Shown here in pieces: positions 12,221 through 56,464 of a stretch of DNA of 64,000 bases. The position numbers were made by a program, and so were the translations under genes. Positions within the stretch are counted from its first letter, which is position 1. Every line of letters begins with the position of its first letter. Origin of the DNA: a virus; the IMG/VR virus record IMGVR_UViG_3300005613_000006, positions 108,879 to 172,878 of that record; one strand, written 5' to 3'. The notes under the pieces were generated by a model. The model searched no databases. It had not been told where the DNA came from and saw only the letters and a list, made by a program, of their open reading frames with translations.

Positions 12221-12482
12221 ATACGCACACGCTAAACTCTACGTCCCAATGGATTACGAACGCAAAACCGTGTGCGTCGATGGCATTCGCCATCCAAAGA
12301 GTCCTGACTGGTTCGCCTTCTGTGTTTATCCCTTGCAGCAACCCATAGGTGTCGCTTCAACTGCAAGGCCCAGTATCTCTCACCGTACATCTCAGGGCTG
12401 TTGCCAACCACGTTCGTCAGCTTACACCCAGGCTTTCGAGGCCCCCATCGGAAGACTACGGACTGCCGTTTTCTGGACTCAG

Positions 12483-12550
12483 TGGAGCGACGGGGACTCG
12501 AACCCCGCCTCCGACCGTGCAAAGGTCAGGTCTAGCCCTCTAGCCACCCC
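12483..12550 (-). tRNA. tRNA-Ala(TGC)
   Basis: G3:U70, anticodon loop TTTGCAC, short D-arm. Confidence 0.8.
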
Positions 12551-12571
12551 TTTTTGCTCGTCGTACAAGGT

Positions 12572-12599
12572 ATTATACACCGGGAATTCGGTTTGTCAA
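12572..12599 (-). promoter_or_regulatory. sigma70-consensus promoter for the tRNA cluster
   Basis: TTGACA-16 nt-TATAAT, including GGTGTATAAT. Confidence 0.8.
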
Positions 12600-13225
12600 C
12601 CAACTTTTTGAAGATTTTCATGGACAAACCAAGCATCCCAGCCAACTTCCCTCATCCAGGTGTATCCCTTATCCCTCAGAAAAGTGGTAATATCCTCCAA
12701 ATACTTGCGGTCTCGCCCCTCATGGCAGTTGTGTTCCACGGTGATAATTCCAAACACCCAGGTCCAGTCGTAGGATTTCAGAATGTCTAGCTCCGAGCCC
12801 TCTGTGTCGATGGACAGGTAGTTAACGTAGGAAGGAGCGCCGTGTTCGGCCAGGAGGTCATGTAACGTGACGCACGGAATCTCCACTTCCCTCCCAAACT
12901 GCTGTCTTTCTTTCTGATACGGCTGGTCGAGGTCAACAAACTCTGAAATGGTGGAGCAAACACCACCAGAAAAATCAACCTCGGTGAACTTCACGGTTCC
13001 GTTGTGGGTCCACACAGCCCGCTTGTCCCTCTTGCATGTACGCCCGAACTTGTCGTATTGTTCGTCGTTTATCAACGGGTCCACGCAAATTCCTTGCCAC
13101 CCCGCCTCGTCTAACAAAAACGAGTTGCTGAAATGCTCCGCATGGCTTGCGCCGACCTCCACATAGAAGCCCTCGTTCCCTACTTTCTCCAACACGAACT
13201 TGTCCTGTCCTAACTGACTAGGCAT
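12596..13225 (-). CDS. FkbM-family methyltransferase
   Basis: SQLGQD, YVEVGA, W.GICVDP, YLSIDTEGSE. Confidence 0.9.
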   Translation of the reverse strand: MPSQLGQDKFVLEKVGNEGFYVEVGASHAEHFSNSFLLDEAGWQGICVDPLINDEQYDKFGRTCKRDKRAVWTHNGTVKFTEVDFSGGVCSTISEFVDLDQPYQKERQQFGREVEIPCVTLHDLLAEHGAPSYVNYLSIDTEGSELDILKSYDWTWVFGIITVEHNCHEGRDRKYLEDITTFLRDKGYTWMREVGWDAWFVHENLQKVG

Positions 13226-37422: not shown

Positions 37423-37562
37423 ATCGTAGCCCGTAACGTGGGCTAATCGGGGGACGACTCAAGAGCCGCCTTCACCACCAACTTTTGACAGAAGTTGGAA
37501 ACTGGGAGGGTAGCCGAAGCCACTCCCACCGCCACCAGTTCTTTATGGAAACTGGAAACCAG

Positions 37563-37635
37563 CGACCCTAGCGGGAATTGAACCCGCGTCGAGAGGTTGA
37601 AAGCCTCACATCCTAGTCCACTAGAAGATAGGGCC
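37563..37635 (-). tRNA. tRNA-Glu(TTC)
   Basis: loop CTTTCAA. Confidence 0.9.
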
Positions 37636-41777: not shown

Positions 41778-41963
41778 AGTCTCTCTCTTTGAGGTAGGAG
41801 TCAGTGGACGGCGCGGGAATTGAACCCGCGTCCTGCGATACCTCCAAAGCAAACGTCTACGTGTGTAGTTTGTTGTTAGGCTGCACAACAAACAAAGCTG
41901 TCTCGATGGTGGATATGCCTCTTGTTTTTTTAGGCACAAGAATAAGCCGTCCCGCGCTTGCCG

Positions 41964-41999
41964 TTAGGCTGCGCAGGCCAGAATGCCGTTATACTCGGC
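41964..41999 (-). other. tmRNA tag reading frame (A)AEYNGILACAA
   Basis: TAACT-GCC resume context, C-terminal AA then stop. Confidence 0.85.
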
Positions 42000-42022
42000 A
42001 GTTAAATTTGGTAGTCGATTTT

Positions 42023-42517
42023 TTATACACGATTCGCTTTTAAGTATTGGATTGCATTTTGTAGCAGGGCAATATCGTCCTGTAAAAAACCAATCCCGCG
42101 ATTGCATTTGTTACACAACAGACCTCGTATTTGTCCAGTCTGGTGGCAATGGTCTATTGCTAGTTTGCAATCTTTACCATGTCCAACTTCAACTCCACAG
42201 ATTTGACATTGTTCACCGAATTTTGAAACAAGTTCTTCATATTGCGCAAGCGACTGAGCATCTAAGTGTATGCAATGATTACATTGATACTTGCCGTTGC
42301 TCAATAATTGTGGAAAGTTTGACAATGGTAATAGTTTGCCACAGTTTTTACATGTGGCCTTGCCGTTTTTTGTATTCTTGGTTTTCGGTTTGTGCAAACC
42401 AAGATTAACGGCTTTGTAACGCAAGGTGGTATAGTTCATGCCAAGCTGACGAGCAGCTTTTCTTAAAGACATTCCACTTTTCACCAAGTTTACAATCTGT
42501 TGTTCAACTTCGGTCAT
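42023..42517 (-). CDS. HTH-endonuclease VII-family homing endonuclease
   Basis: C.ICG...LAIDHCH.TG.IRGLLC..CN.GIG...D; own promoter motif (42536) and RBS GGAGG. Confidence 0.9.
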   Translation of the reverse strand: MTEVEQQIVNLVKSGMSLRKAARQLGMNYTTLRYKAVNLGLHKPKTKNTKNGKATCKNCGKLLPLSNFPQLLSNGKYQCNHCIHLDAQSLAQYEELVSKFGEQCQICGVEVGHGKDCKLAIDHCHQTGQIRGLLCNKCNRGIGFLQDDIALLQNAIQYLKANRV

Positions 42518-42588
42518 TGGTGTTTCCTCCCTATTATTATACACCAGAACTGACCAAAATCGACCAATGCTTAAAAGCGAATCGTGTA
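42026..42588 (-). mobile_element. inverted-repeat-bounded intervening sequence in tmRNA PK1
   Basis: 42026-42050 and 42564-42588 are 24/25 complementary. Confidence 0.85.
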
Positions 42589-42659
42589 ACCGTGGCCCTT
42601 CGACCAACCACGACACGCGGTTCACAGCATCAGCACCCAGTCGAAACCTAAATGCCGCC

Positions 42660-42992
42660 CTAAACACTGTCTAACAAAGCAGCGACTTCCTCAACTGTCG
42701 CCTCGGCTCCTGTATGTAAGATTGCGTCAACAACCTTGCCTCCATGTAGTCTAAACTCACGGAAGCCCATTTCTCGCCTAACACGACGAGCTAACGCCCG
42801 CTTCTCCAACCATGTTGGATTTTGTGCCATGAAAGATACCTCTTCTGAGGACTTACGGCAGCGGTCGCGAATCAGTGGAATCAAACCAATAGCAACTTCG
42901 GTAAGCAATAGCAAGAGCGCGGCGCTCAGTGCCACATTTTGCTCACCCGGTAGATTCAGAACTGTTCTCTCAGCAAAGTCTTCTGGTGTCAT
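42660..42992 (-). CDS. hypothetical membrane-associated protein
   Basis: 110 aa with a hydrophobic segment; stop abuts the tmRNA 5' end. Confidence 0.65.
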   Translation of the reverse strand: MTPEDFAERTVLNLPGEQNVALSAALLLLLTEVAIGLIPLIRDRCRKSSEEVSFMAQNPTWLEKRALARRVRREMGFREFRLHGGKVVDAILHTGAEATVEEVAALLDSV

Positions 42993-43019
42993 TGCTCTCT
43001 CTCTTTCTTTTCTAAACAG

Positions 43020-43093
43020 TCGGAATGACAGGATTTGAACCTGCGGCCTTCCGCCCCCCAGACGGACGCGCTACCAAGCTGCGCTACATTCCG
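43020..43093 (-). tRNA. tRNA-Pro(GGG)
   Basis: loop CTGGGGG. Confidence 0.9.
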
Positions 43094-43166
43094 TTATAAT
43101 CTATATGCAGACGCCCACTTACAAAGTTTGGTCTGAACCTCCTACTATTATTATACACCGCGACTG

Positions 43167-48044: not shown

Positions 48045-49616
48045 TTAGTCTCCTGAGTAGTTTTCCACGATGGAAACAAAGTCTTCGCCGCTTTCACGGT
48101 TGAAGAAGTCGTCCATCACGGTGAATACGGCATCGCTGAAACCACCCACGTTCAACACAACGCCTTCGCGTTCTGGTGTCTGCGTGGTAGTGTTTGGCGT
48201 AATGTCGATGTTCACCAACTTACTCTTTGGGTTTCTACTGTGGAACTCAGTCCACTCTTGGGCCGTACCGCCTCGACCACCATGACGACCAAACCAACTT
48301 TCGTTGTCCGATACGTAGATGATGTTCTCAGCCTTGGCTCTTGTGTTGTTCAAGTGTCGTAGTGGAACCGAGCAGTCGGTTCCCCCACCACCAAAGCTGC
48401 GCAAGGTCTGCGCATTGGTCATAACACTGTCAAACGGGTTCAAGTGTGCATTGTACAAACGGTTGTCGAATGGCATGATGCTGGCGTTCTTGTTTTGACG
48501 GAGTACGCACACTGCGAACAGGGCGGCTACGTCAACACACTTGGTAACGCTGTACGAACCAGTACGACGGCCCATTGCAACCCAACTCATTGAGCTTGAC
48601 ACGTCCACACCAACCACAGTGCGGCCTCGGAAGGTCGGCACGTTTTCCGTAGCAATTTCCATAGCTTCCTGCAAGGCGTTACTGATACGGCTGTCGATGG
48701 TCACGTTTTGGTACGTGGTCAACAGTTGGTATGGGAAGACGTTGCACTGGCGAACCAATTCTGGATTGGCCAACTTCGCGGCCACTTCGTCCACAAATGC
48801 GCTGCTACCGAACACACCACGCTTTTCGAGCATGTTCAAGTTCATACGCAAAGTGTTCCAGGGCATGTTGCGAGCAATGTCACGCCATGCGTTGACACCC
48901 AACTTCAAGTTCGTCAAAGCGCGAAATGGAACGTCTGGGATTTCGTACTCATCTGGCACGTCACCCATTTCCTTCAACGCTTCAAACTGTTGAATGTCTT
49001 CTGGTAGGTACTGGTAGTTTTCGTCGCTCAACTTACCAATCAAGTACGAGAACATAGCTTGCTGTTCTCTACCCACTGGACGTGGGTGTACCATCTTGAT
49101 AGCATCGGCAAGCGACGGGTTGCTGTGACCTACGCTGGCGATGTACAGCTTGTACGCACTGCGGTCTTGCAGCCATCGCTGGATGCAACGCTTTACGGCA
49201 GTACCAAAGCTACGTCGGCCAACGGCACCACTACGAATCAAGTGCATGAAGTTCAACAGCATCTTGCTGTTGTTACACACACGATTGAAGATGGTCTTGA
49301 CCAACTCGGTTTCGCCTCTGGCGGCTAGAGTAGCCAACAGGTAAGCAGGAACGTCCTTCATTCGACCAACCTCACGGCTGTAGACCGCTAGCTTGGCCAA
49401 AAACTCTGACGAACATTCGTTTGCCAGCGCTTGGATTTCCTTGACTTGTTCACCGGCGCTGACATAGAAGGTGTTGCTGAACGTACCAGTTACGGCGTAC
49501 TGTGCCAGGGCATGTTCGTTGGTCTTGCTGTACGCAAGGCCACCAGCGTGATTTCGCGTGTCTGGACGAGGCGTGTTACGCGAACGACAACGGTTTCTGA
49601 AAAGATTCTTGTTCAT
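48045..49616 (-). CDS. rsr: Ro60/TROVE-domain RNA-binding protein (Rsr ortholog)
   Basis: N.AGG.AY, TGTF..TFY, MP....RMNL, vWA MIDAS-like DVSSSM, GGGTDCS, SDNESW, VGGFSD. Confidence 0.95.
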   Translation of the reverse strand: MNKNLFRNRCRSRNTPRPDTRNHAGGLAYSKTNEHALAQYAVTGTFSNTFYVSAGEQVKEIQALANECSSEFLAKLAVYSREVGRMKDVPAYLLATLAARGETELVKTIFNRVCNNSKMLLNFMHLIRSGAVGRRSFGTAVKRCIQRWLQDRSAYKLYIASVGHSNPSLADAIKMVHPRPVGREQQAMFSYLIGKLSDENYQYLPEDIQQFEALKEMGDVPDEYEIPDVPFRALTNLKLGVNAWRDIARNMPWNTLRMNLNMLEKRGVFGSSAFVDEVAAKLANPELVRQCNVFPYQLLTTYQNVTIDSRISNALQEAMEIATENVPTFRGRTVVGVDVSSSMSWVAMGRRTGSYSVTKCVDVAALFAVCVLRQNKNASIMPFDNRLYNAHLNPFDSVMTNAQTLRSFGGGGTDCSVPLRHLNNTRAKAENIIYVSDNESWFGRHGGRGGTAQEWTEFHSRNPKSKLVNIDITPNTTTQTPEREGVVLNVGGFSDAVFTVMDDFFNRESGEDFVSIVENYSGD

Positions 49617-49681
49617 AGGATTTCTCCCTTCATTCAGCAAAAGTCTGACAAAATTTCCTGGGCCTAAAAGCCCAACATTAT

Positions 49682-55587: not shown

Positions 55588-56211
55588 TTAATCTTCCTCC
55601 AAATAATCAATAAGTTTTTGCAATATATCACTATCATCATTACAATGACCCAGTGTTACATTACATCTAAAACAGAGCAAGCCTCTTATTTTACCAGTTT
55701 GGTGTGAATGGTCCACAGCAAATCTTGTTCGATTGTTACCTGGATTATTGGCCCCACAACATGCACATTTGCCATTTTGCCGTTTTAACAGATTTTCGTA
55801 CTCTCGTAGGGTAATGCCAAATTCATGTTGTAATTGTATATCCGTCTTACAATCTTTACAACAAGCATGAAGACCATCTTTGGTATATCTATCCTTACCA
55901 AACATATCCACCGTTTTCATTTCAAGACACCTAGAACATTTTTTGAAACCATTACTTGCCAAAGTTCCTTTTCTAAATCTAACTTTGACCAGCTTCTTCA
56001 ATAAACATCCACATGATTGAATTCTTCCTTGTTTGACTTCATAACAACCAAGTTCTTTTAGATTACCACATTCACATCGAAACATGGCATGTTGTAATCT
56101 CCGATTGGTGTCCTTGTATCTCACATAAAATGGTTCACCTTCTACTGTAAGCATTCCAAACTTGTCGCCGGGGTGTACTGACCATCGTTCTTTCGGTATA
56201 GGTTCTGACAT
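55588..56211 (-). CDS. endonuclease VII-family homing endonuclease
   Basis: GIT..EY..L...Q.G.C..C, AVDH.H.TG.IRGLLC..CN..LG; AT-rich; promoter motif at 56253. Confidence 0.9.
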   Translation of the reverse strand: MSEPIPKERWSVHPGDKFGMLTVEGEPFYVRYKDTNRRLQHAMFRCECGNLKELGCYEVKQGRIQSCGCLLKKLVKVRFRKGTLASNGFKKCSRCLEMKTVDMFGKDRYTKDGLHACCKDCKTDIQLQHEFGITLREYENLLKRQNGKCACCGANNPGNNRTRFAVDHSHQTGKIRGLLCFRCNVTLGHCNDDSDILQKLIDYLEED

Positions 56212-56464
56212 GAAAAAATCTCCTCAACTTTGATGTTAATACTGACTAATGTATTATACACCAAAATTTAGAAGATTATCAGAAAAAATCTATTTTCGTC
56301 CAAAATACGAAAGTCATATCTCCATCCTTCCGACTAGAGTTCGGAATGGGGCGAGCAGCCGAAAAACAGACAGGGGTGGCCACTCGCCCCTAAGTCAAAA
56401 ATTCTGGGCGAATCAAGTCGCCCGCCTGCAATGAGTCCTTAGTATAGCACGGCGTTTGAAAAAG

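Follow-up and report, generated by a model that had tools for sequence, protein, structure and literature searches.

An apparently undescribed form of interrupted tmRNA gene in an uncultured phage: a homing endonuclease cassette with its own closing stem

What becomes of a transfer-messenger RNA (tmRNA) whose gene is split by a homing endonuclease gene that brings no recognisable ribozyme? This question is raised by the split tmRNA gene at 41804-42660 (minus strand) of the stretch of DNA analysed here, hereafter the window, which is the last 64 kb of an uncultured phage genome of 172,878 bp, rated complete by CheckV. Pseudoknot 1 (PK1) of this tmRNA is interrupted by an insert of 563 nucleotides (nt), 42026-42588, exactly bounded by an inverted repeat and containing an endonuclease gene. 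Comparison with related loci indicates that this type of interrupted tmRNA gene is real and recurrent, and apparently undescribed; its anatomy and evolution are well supported. As to its meaning, we lean, with somewhat better than even confidence, towards a tmRNA-specific homing cassette that would neutralise its own insertion at the RNA level through a closing stem, which RNase III would cut or which would simply be tolerated; homing, a working tmRNA despite the insert and cleavage by RNase III are the parts of this interpretation that we infer.

In a 2025 census that covered about 97,000 tmRNA sequences, three forms of the gene were distinguished, namely the standard form, the form with a group I intron in the T-loop, and the permuted form (PMC11915505). 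Introns were found only in the T-loop, with LAGLIDADG genes, and about 4% carry LAGLIDADG endonuclease genes; the authors pointed out that genes interrupted elsewhere may systematically have escaped notice (PMC11915505). Both ARAGORN and Rfam miss the window gene because it is interrupted outside the recognised site. An earlier note on this DNA had known of no described case, and the arrangement is indeed absent from these three gene forms; full-text literature searches combining tmRNA with Endo VII, HNH or intervening sequences gave no description of a stem-closed cassette.

The interrupted gene and the anatomy of its insert

In its native state the region 41780-42700 is not called as a tmRNA by ARAGORN, and on the interrupted gene the Rfam model RF00023 recovers only the 3' part, at 36.3 bits against a gathering score of 47, a shortfall caused by the insert. 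When 42026-42588 is deleted, a check proposed in the earlier note, ARAGORN calls a tmRNA of 294 nt with a canonical T-arm and the tag AEYNGILACAA*, which bears out the note's description of an otherwise intact molecule. The acceptor stem of 7 base pairs (bp), G1-G2-G3-C-G-G-C against G-C-C-G-U-C-C, contains the G3:U70 pair both by direct reading and in the ARAGORN call, and acceptor and T-arm also form in the predicted fold of the full 857 nt. The 5' part of the tmRNA (nt 1-72; 42589..42660, minus strand), delimited by ARAGORN after deletion and by alignment with an insert-free sister allele (L020), comprises PK1 helix 1 together with the 5' strands of the acceptor, of P2 and of PK1 helix 2. 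The 3' part (nt 73-294; 41804..42025, minus strand), delimited in the same way and by the partial RF00023 match, comprises the 3' strand of PK1 helix 2, the tag frame, further pseudoknots, the P2 3' strand, the T-arm and the acceptor 3' strand. Within it, the tag frame AEYNGILACAA plus stop lies at 41964..41999 (minus strand), as called by ARAGORN, and is kept as AESNGVLACAA in the insert-free alleles L020 and L022. The order of the parts is that of a standard gene; the acceptor piece does not lie upstream of the coding piece, as it would in a permuted two-piece tmRNA. ARAGORN also calls a second 'tmRNA' at 12482-12894 (minus strand) of the window, with the tag GGYYHFSEG* and a 3' end in common with a tRNA-Ala gene (12482-12550); this call is without Rfam support and is probably a false positive.

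PK1 lies upstream of the tag, and both of its helices can be written in the window tmRNA. The strands assigned to it in the earlier note gain support because helix 2 shows compensatory changes in five variants across the relatives, namely GGTCGA/TCGACT in the window, GGTCAC/GTGACT in L020, GGTCAA/TTGACT in L023, TGATCA/TGATCA in L034 and GGAATC/GATTCT in L032.

The insert has a GC content of 0.38-0.40, compared with about 0.5 in its flanks. Its two ends form an inverted repeat of 25 nt with 24/25 positions (96%) complementary and 513 nt between the arms, whereas the next-best inverted repeat within 1.6 kb has 19 nt at 74%. These are the same arms, with the same single mismatch, that had been noticed from the sequence beforehand. 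The 5' arm (42564..42588, minus strand) starts from the first insert base and pairs with the 3' arm in the minimum-free-energy structure at a mean pair probability of 0.79. The 3' arm (42026..42050, minus strand) coincides with the last eight codons of the endonuclease open reading frame (ORF), as the earlier note had stated; directly behind it, 42023-42025 is the stop codon. Downstream of the 5' arm, and just behind two direct TTGGTCRA repeats (42550..42567, minus strand; direct reading) that match the sequence of the 5' strand of PK1 helix 2, lies a copy of the phage promoter motif (42536..42548, minus strand), recognised from motif counts in the genome and the window. A strong ribosome-binding site, GGGAGG, is read directly at 42526..42531 (minus strand), 8 nt before the ATG of the endonuclease gene (42023..42517, minus strand; 164 amino acids).

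Only 71 nt of the insert are non-coding, which leaves no room for a ribozyme, just as the earlier note had argued. Group I and group II intron families have no Rfam match in the window at E <= 10, nor in two related loci (L023 and L025). Furthermore, the last insert base is A, where a group I intron would end in G, and the ORF encodes an endonuclease only and not the reverse transcriptase expected of a group II intron. What the locus does present is the anatomy of an intervening sequence (IVS), i.e., an insert in the loop of a structured RNA with a closing stem of roughly two helical turns or longer, here of 24-25 bp in each of six cassettes described below.

A long stem that closes off an endonuclease ORF within the gene of a structured RNA, with no ribozyme, also recalls the archaeal introns of rRNA and tRNA genes, where endonuclease ORFs are looped out in the same manner. 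True splicing by an unrecognised route, with the stem offering its junctions to a cellular endonuclease and the halves being religated, can therefore be imagined, yet we regard it as very improbable indeed. By direct reading, none of the six cassette junctions shows the bulge-helix-bulge motif (two 3-nt bulges, 4-bp helix) of the archaeal introns, and no such motif is conserved at the six stem bases; the phage encodes no RtcB; and tmRNA is bacterial, while bacteria are not known to possess the splicing endonuclease. Ligation is not expected.

The 164-residue product matches Pfam Endonuclease_7 (PF02945; 3.9e-19) and carries an N-terminal helix-turn-helix (HTH) domain, which matches HTH families, followed by a CxxC...CxxC cysteine finger with the Endo VII catalytic motif. 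Across 87% of its length it shows 34% identity to F-CphI of cyanophage S-PM2, the founding member of the Endo VII-motif homing endonucleases, a family with the motif CxxC, DHxH, R, CxxC-N (PMC6083498). C104, C107, D122, H123, H125, R131, C135, C138 and N139 are invariant in both endonuclease alignments (A3, A4), so that the protein is best described, from its sequence, as a putative homing enzyme of the F-CphI type with HTH and Endo VII motifs and an intact catalytic motif. The two enzymes resemble each other in domain order, in catalytic motif and in being borne by phages, but F-CphI is free-standing beside its target, the protein gene psbA, whereas the clade of the window enzyme lies inside or directly beside tmRNA genes. 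Among 5.8 billion proteins only two close full-length relatives were found (56% and 54% identity), both located in the PK1 loop of other phage tmRNAs (L025 and L023/L024, described below), and an exhaustive profile search added three more distant ones (40-43%; in L034, L032/L033 and L035), all three tmRNA-linked. Still more distant Endo VII proteins (P0131, P0137) are free-standing between protein genes with no tmRNA beside them. The endonuclease clade is therefore tmRNA-associated. In the last of these three loci (L035, 52-919), the endonuclease gene is free-standing and its ORF end overlaps the 5' end of an intact tmRNA of 98.8 bits; YrlA-like matches follow this tmRNA. The window itself holds a second Endo VII-type gene at 55588-56211 (minus strand), 27% identical to the cassette enzyme, which stands free before an ORF of 757 amino acids and has its own copy of the phage promoter motif at 56253-56265.

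Empty sites, related cassettes and the closing stem

Relatives were located by searching a large protein collection with the nearby AAA ATPase and with the endonuclease, and by means of a PK1 pattern. The region had no match by blastn against GenBank phages, and scans of viral contigs with the neighbouring 110-residue protein, the 757-residue protein, a T-arm plus acceptor string, a degenerate tag and a P2 pattern returned nothing. The earlier note had named a chimeric assembly as something that would overturn its proposal. An artefact joining a tmRNA and an unrelated endonuclease gene deserves next to no credence, since L019, an ENA contig from an independent assembly, has exactly the same sequence throughout the split gene, and five further phage lineages, known from other samples, are built alike; the idea is refuted as far as assemblies can show.

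Insert-free alleles, which the earlier note had suggested looking for, do exist. A sister phage (L020) has the same gene order and, at the same genomic position, an uninterrupted tmRNA scoring 94.8 bits on RF00023, with the tag AESNGVLACAA*; a JGI contig (L022) carries an identical tmRNA. The window minus its stem-bounded segment is colinear with this allele save for small loop indels. A third sister (L021, 11267-11778) has the same insert at the same base, reduced to 217 nt by deletion of the start region and of the whole nuclease domain. Its arms are still 24/25 complementary, and two adjacent stem positions have changed on both sides relative to the window. This allele looks like the degeneration stage of a homing cycle, possibly with tmRNA function lost.

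Beyond these sisters, cassettes occupy the same PK1 loop in four sets of very different tmRNAs. In L025, ARAGORN calls the tmRNA after deletion of the cassette and G3:U70 is present. The tmRNA of L023/L024 was read by eye and has an odd T-loop. That of L034 has the tag AEPQFSLAA, its 5' end lying off the contig. In L032/L033 (L032, 2322-3100) the acceptor piece comes first, G3:U70 is readable, the T-loop is one base off canonical and the tag is ATRNYTVAA; ARAGORN fails here, and the match to tmRNA_permuted (RF04321) is sub-threshold at 42 bits. The identification of the tmRNA thus rests on direct reading in L023 and on direct reading plus this match in L032, which is probably circularly permuted. 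Together with the window and L021, this makes six occupied PK1 sites, from differing samples, and the endonucleases of the four distant cassettes are 40-57% identical to that of the window. The window cassette is accordingly no isolated case but one member of a family, whose design recurs in at least five further uncultured phages.

On both sides of the insert, PK1 has nearly the same sequence in every occupied allele, and this sequence is found uninterrupted in other phage tmRNAs (L027/L028, L029) as well as in those of two bacterial metagenome-assembled genomes. A target conserved in insert-free phage and bacterial tmRNAs is what would be expected for a homing site. The sister allele L020, which differs at several PK1 positions, may be a resistant variant. 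The cassette family also provides a set of endonucleases that probably recognise a conserved tmRNA sequence of 30-40 bp.

Each cassette has its own stem of 24-25 bp, made from the end of its ORF and an upstream inverted copy of it, and the arm sequences differ widely. When the six cassettes are aligned by homologous codons, compensatory double changes are found at 19 of the 24 stem positions. The proposal that the 5' arm is an inverted copy of the ORF end is thereby strengthened, the arm following the 3' codons of its own ORF through all 19 of these positions. Own arms pair at 22-24 positions, as against 7-14 when combined with arms of other, distantly related cassettes; the exception is the near-identical pair of the window and L021, which cross-pair at 21-25. 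In predicted folds of four precursors (window, L021, L025 and L023), the stem forms with mean pair probabilities of 0.79-0.95, and the acceptor stem forms as well. The stem starts at or within a few bases of the junction in all six cassettes and measures about 25 bp throughout, even though the ORF ends at varying distances from the junction: the stop codon falls just after the arm in the window, inside the arm in L025 and L034, 5 nt after the arm in L032, and 17 nt into the tmRNA in L023. These observations support the view that the insert ends form a maintained stem. Each of the six stems also has a non-Watson-Crick pair at one or other of positions 3-6 of the aligned stems, some 18-21 bp from the base; this shared defect may be conserved, perhaps as a processing determinant, or may be a by-product of constraints on the 5' arm.

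A maintained stem might have its role in DNA rather than in RNA. The repeat could act as a hairpin or junction in single-stranded intermediates, which the Endo VII-type nuclease would cut in order to move the cassette out or in, its arms being kept complementary by templated correction. The insert is exactly the repeat-bounded segment, the fold of the nuclease is that of junction resolvases, and the non-Watson-Crick pairs on the sense strand of all stems amount to 5 G.U against 6 A.C, as would be expected without strand-specific selection on RNA. The type of mismatch is therefore no proof that selection acts on the sense RNA, A.C being about as common as G.U and making up most of the non-Watson-Crick pairs in five of the stems. 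On the other hand, four of the G.U pairs belong to L034, where they lie on the tmRNA-sense strand, so that only 20/25 positions (80%) of the DNA arms are complementary while 24/25 are paired in the sense RNA. Moreover, only the complementarity of the arms is conserved and not their sequence, in contrast to terminal repeats that are bound by proteins; the homing enzyme F-CphI, which has been characterised, acts on plain duplex DNA in a sequence-specific way, first nicking and then linearising it (PMC6083498); and with 495-521 nt between the arms, extrusion from duplex DNA would be unlikely. We accordingly consider a DNA-level element very unlikely.

Expression, possible mechanism and the state of the interrupted tmRNA

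The insert had been noted to carry its own sequence motif and ribosome-binding site. The motif, GGTGTATAAT at 42536-42545, proves to be the phage's own promoter consensus, of which 35 core copies occur in the genome, mostly before genes. Its extended 13-mer, TTTGGTGTATAAT, has 19 matches in the window against 1.8 expected and, often followed by TAGTAG, precedes many genes and tRNA clusters, so that it is apparently the main promoter of the phage. Because the cassette promoter sits downstream of the 5' arm, the endonuclease mRNA that starts there cannot form the stem. The nearest upstream promoter core in the genome-wide list, 43150..43159 (minus strand), is the likely start of a transcript with the tRNA-Pro gene (43019-43093, upstream of the tmRNA gene), the 110-residue ORF and the tmRNA.

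The TTGGTCRA repeats between the 5' arm and the promoter recur in two copies in L025 (1262-1277) and L023 (1387-1410) and in one copy in L021, but they are not found at the other 34 promoters of the genome. In L023, exon and repeats both read GGTCAA. The 8-mer TTGGTCGA is not unique to the locus, with 7 copies in the window against 2.2 expected. From their position and recurrence, it is possible that these repeats are operator copies of one half of the homing site. Autorepression by I-TevI provides a parallel for such an arrangement.

The mechanism that we favour may be outlined as follows. The endonuclease would cut insert-free tmRNA alleles at the conserved PK1 site, and the cassette would then be copied in by repair. 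The insertion spot is taken to be the single-stranded PK1 loop just after the 3' strand of helix 1. In the tmRNA precursor, a stem of 25 bp starting exactly at the insertion point would close off the whole 563-nt insert, thereby reuniting the two halves so that PK1 and the remainder could fold. A transcript from the promoter at 43150-43159 would carry both arms, and its stem would close; the insert might then be carried as a side arm or be cut out by RNase III of the host. The phage genome encodes neither RNase III nor SmpB, the latter presumably being supplied by the host when the tmRNA functions. Cutting would yield a tmRNA of two pieces in non-permuted order, kept together through the acceptor stem, P2, PK1 and the stump of the stem. 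Meanwhile, mRNA from the internal promoter, which is without the 5' arm, would permit translation of the endonuclease without a stem.

A stronger claim can be put forward more tentatively, at somewhat less than even confidence: that the locus represents a fourth form of tmRNA gene, in which a ribozyme-free cassette in the PK1 loop is removed by host RNase III through a stem of its own making to give a non-permuted two-piece tmRNA. If true, it would add to introns and inteins a third general means by which homing endonucleases can reside inside essential structured genes. A cut inside the stem would also remove the stop codon of the endonuclease, and processed transcripts would thus become non-stop messages, which are tmRNA's own substrate. 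The complete enzyme would then be made only from transcripts that escape processing, among them those started at the internal promoter if a cassette has one.

The main competing explanation is a selfish insertion that kills the gene. The tmRNA would be dispensable and dead or dying, and the stem would be kept for purposes of the element itself, such as control or stability of the endonuclease message or its separation from read-through transcripts. We think this unlikely, although several observations speak for it or against a working tmRNA. In L021, G3:C70 stands in place of G3:U70, the tag has IA at its end, and the endonuclease has been lost by deletion. The T-loop of L023 is non-canonical, ARAGORN makes no call there even with the cassette removed, and this allele shows 76 unique changes against 30, its position in the tree being uncertain. 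Lesions in the tRNA-like domain thus affect two of the six interrupted alleles, and decay of the gene is possible. The phage has no SmpB, and accessory RNAs of phages are often lost. Since the stem overlaps with the end of the ORF, and touches the ribosome-binding site in L032, it could regulate translation. The insertions could also be recent, given the insert-free sister, the lack of a close outgroup and the likelihood of horizontal spread, in which case intact exons are weak evidence. Finally, PK1 is the pseudoknot most important for the function of Escherichia coli tmRNA, and a bulky arm within it might not be harmless.

Against gene death stands the condition of the remaining alleles. G3:U70 and a canonical T-loop are retained in the window and in L025, and P2 and an open tag frame of the usual type in the window, L025, L034 and L032, although the endonucleases have diverged to 40-57% identity. 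Tags are conserved between interrupted and uninterrupted relatives, e.g., L025 and L029, and P2 duplex energies are similar in all alleles. Unique exon changes in interrupted alleles and their insert-free sisters number 20 versus 27-29 for the window, 24 versus 31 for L021 and 27-30 versus 26-35 for L025; by these relative-rate tests, the exons of the three alleles do not evolve faster. The consensus that RNAalifold predicted for the 3' parts was wrong in places and of little use. The strongest argument for function lies in the design, because the cassette is always in the same loop, the stem is always at or next to the junction, and it is kept where the ORF has decayed, as in L021 with its 24/25 pairs and two compensatory changes. 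Loop placement and a stem at the junction would be needed for restoring the host RNA but not for regulating an ORF 55 nt away.

Known parallels and the genomic setting

In mechanism, the nearest analogue of the window cassette is the IVS of 23S rRNA. In Coxiella burnetii, helix 45 of 23S rRNA contains a 428-nt IVS bearing an ORF, which is removed by RNase III without ligation (PMC4990558; PMC11270868). Both are ribozyme-free loop inserts with a long closing stem that can carry an ORF, and the rRNA works as base-paired fragments, as the tmRNA may. The window cassette differs in that the host gene is a tmRNA gene, the ORF encodes an intact homing endonuclease and has a promoter to itself, one arm is coding, and cleavage is only proposed. 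With the group I introns of the tmRNA T-loop it shares the character of a mobile interruption, the possible presence of an endonuclease and the need to be neutralised at the RNA level; unlike them, it has no ribozyme, lies in the PK1 loop and encodes an enzyme of the Endo VII type rather than LAGLIDADG. Two-piece tmRNAs are produced from circularly permuted genes in alpha- and beta-proteobacteria and cyanobacteria (PMC11915505). If RNase III cuts the stem, the window tmRNA would likewise consist of two base-paired pieces, but the order of its gene is standard and the break would lie in PK1 upstream of the tag, whereas the permuted break lies downstream; the relative L032 is probably both permuted and provided with a cassette.

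Should the interrupted tmRNAs prove functional, PK1 would be able to tolerate a long side arm or a break in the strand, homing endonucleases would have a simple ribozyme-free route for colonising RNA genes, and there would be a natural IVS outside rRNA. Annotators would also gain a pattern to look for where a phage or bacterial genome seems to be without a tmRNA.

The same genome holds further interrupted or split genes. A LAGLIDADG intein lies in a protein of 1130 amino acids (L016, 1-3393; genome 26841-30233), a LAGLIDADG insert lies in a RecA-like protein (L018, 4617-6713; genome 95324-97420), and DnaE is encoded as two ORFs with another ORF between them (L017; genome 80493-85908). The window contains about 37 tRNA genes, among which a wcaG RNA match of 47 bits is located at 37464-37563 (minus strand), and a homologue of Ro60 (TROVE/vWA) is encoded at 48045-49640 (minus strand). 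The regions of the wcaG match and of the Ro60 homologue are both common to the relatives L021 and L019.

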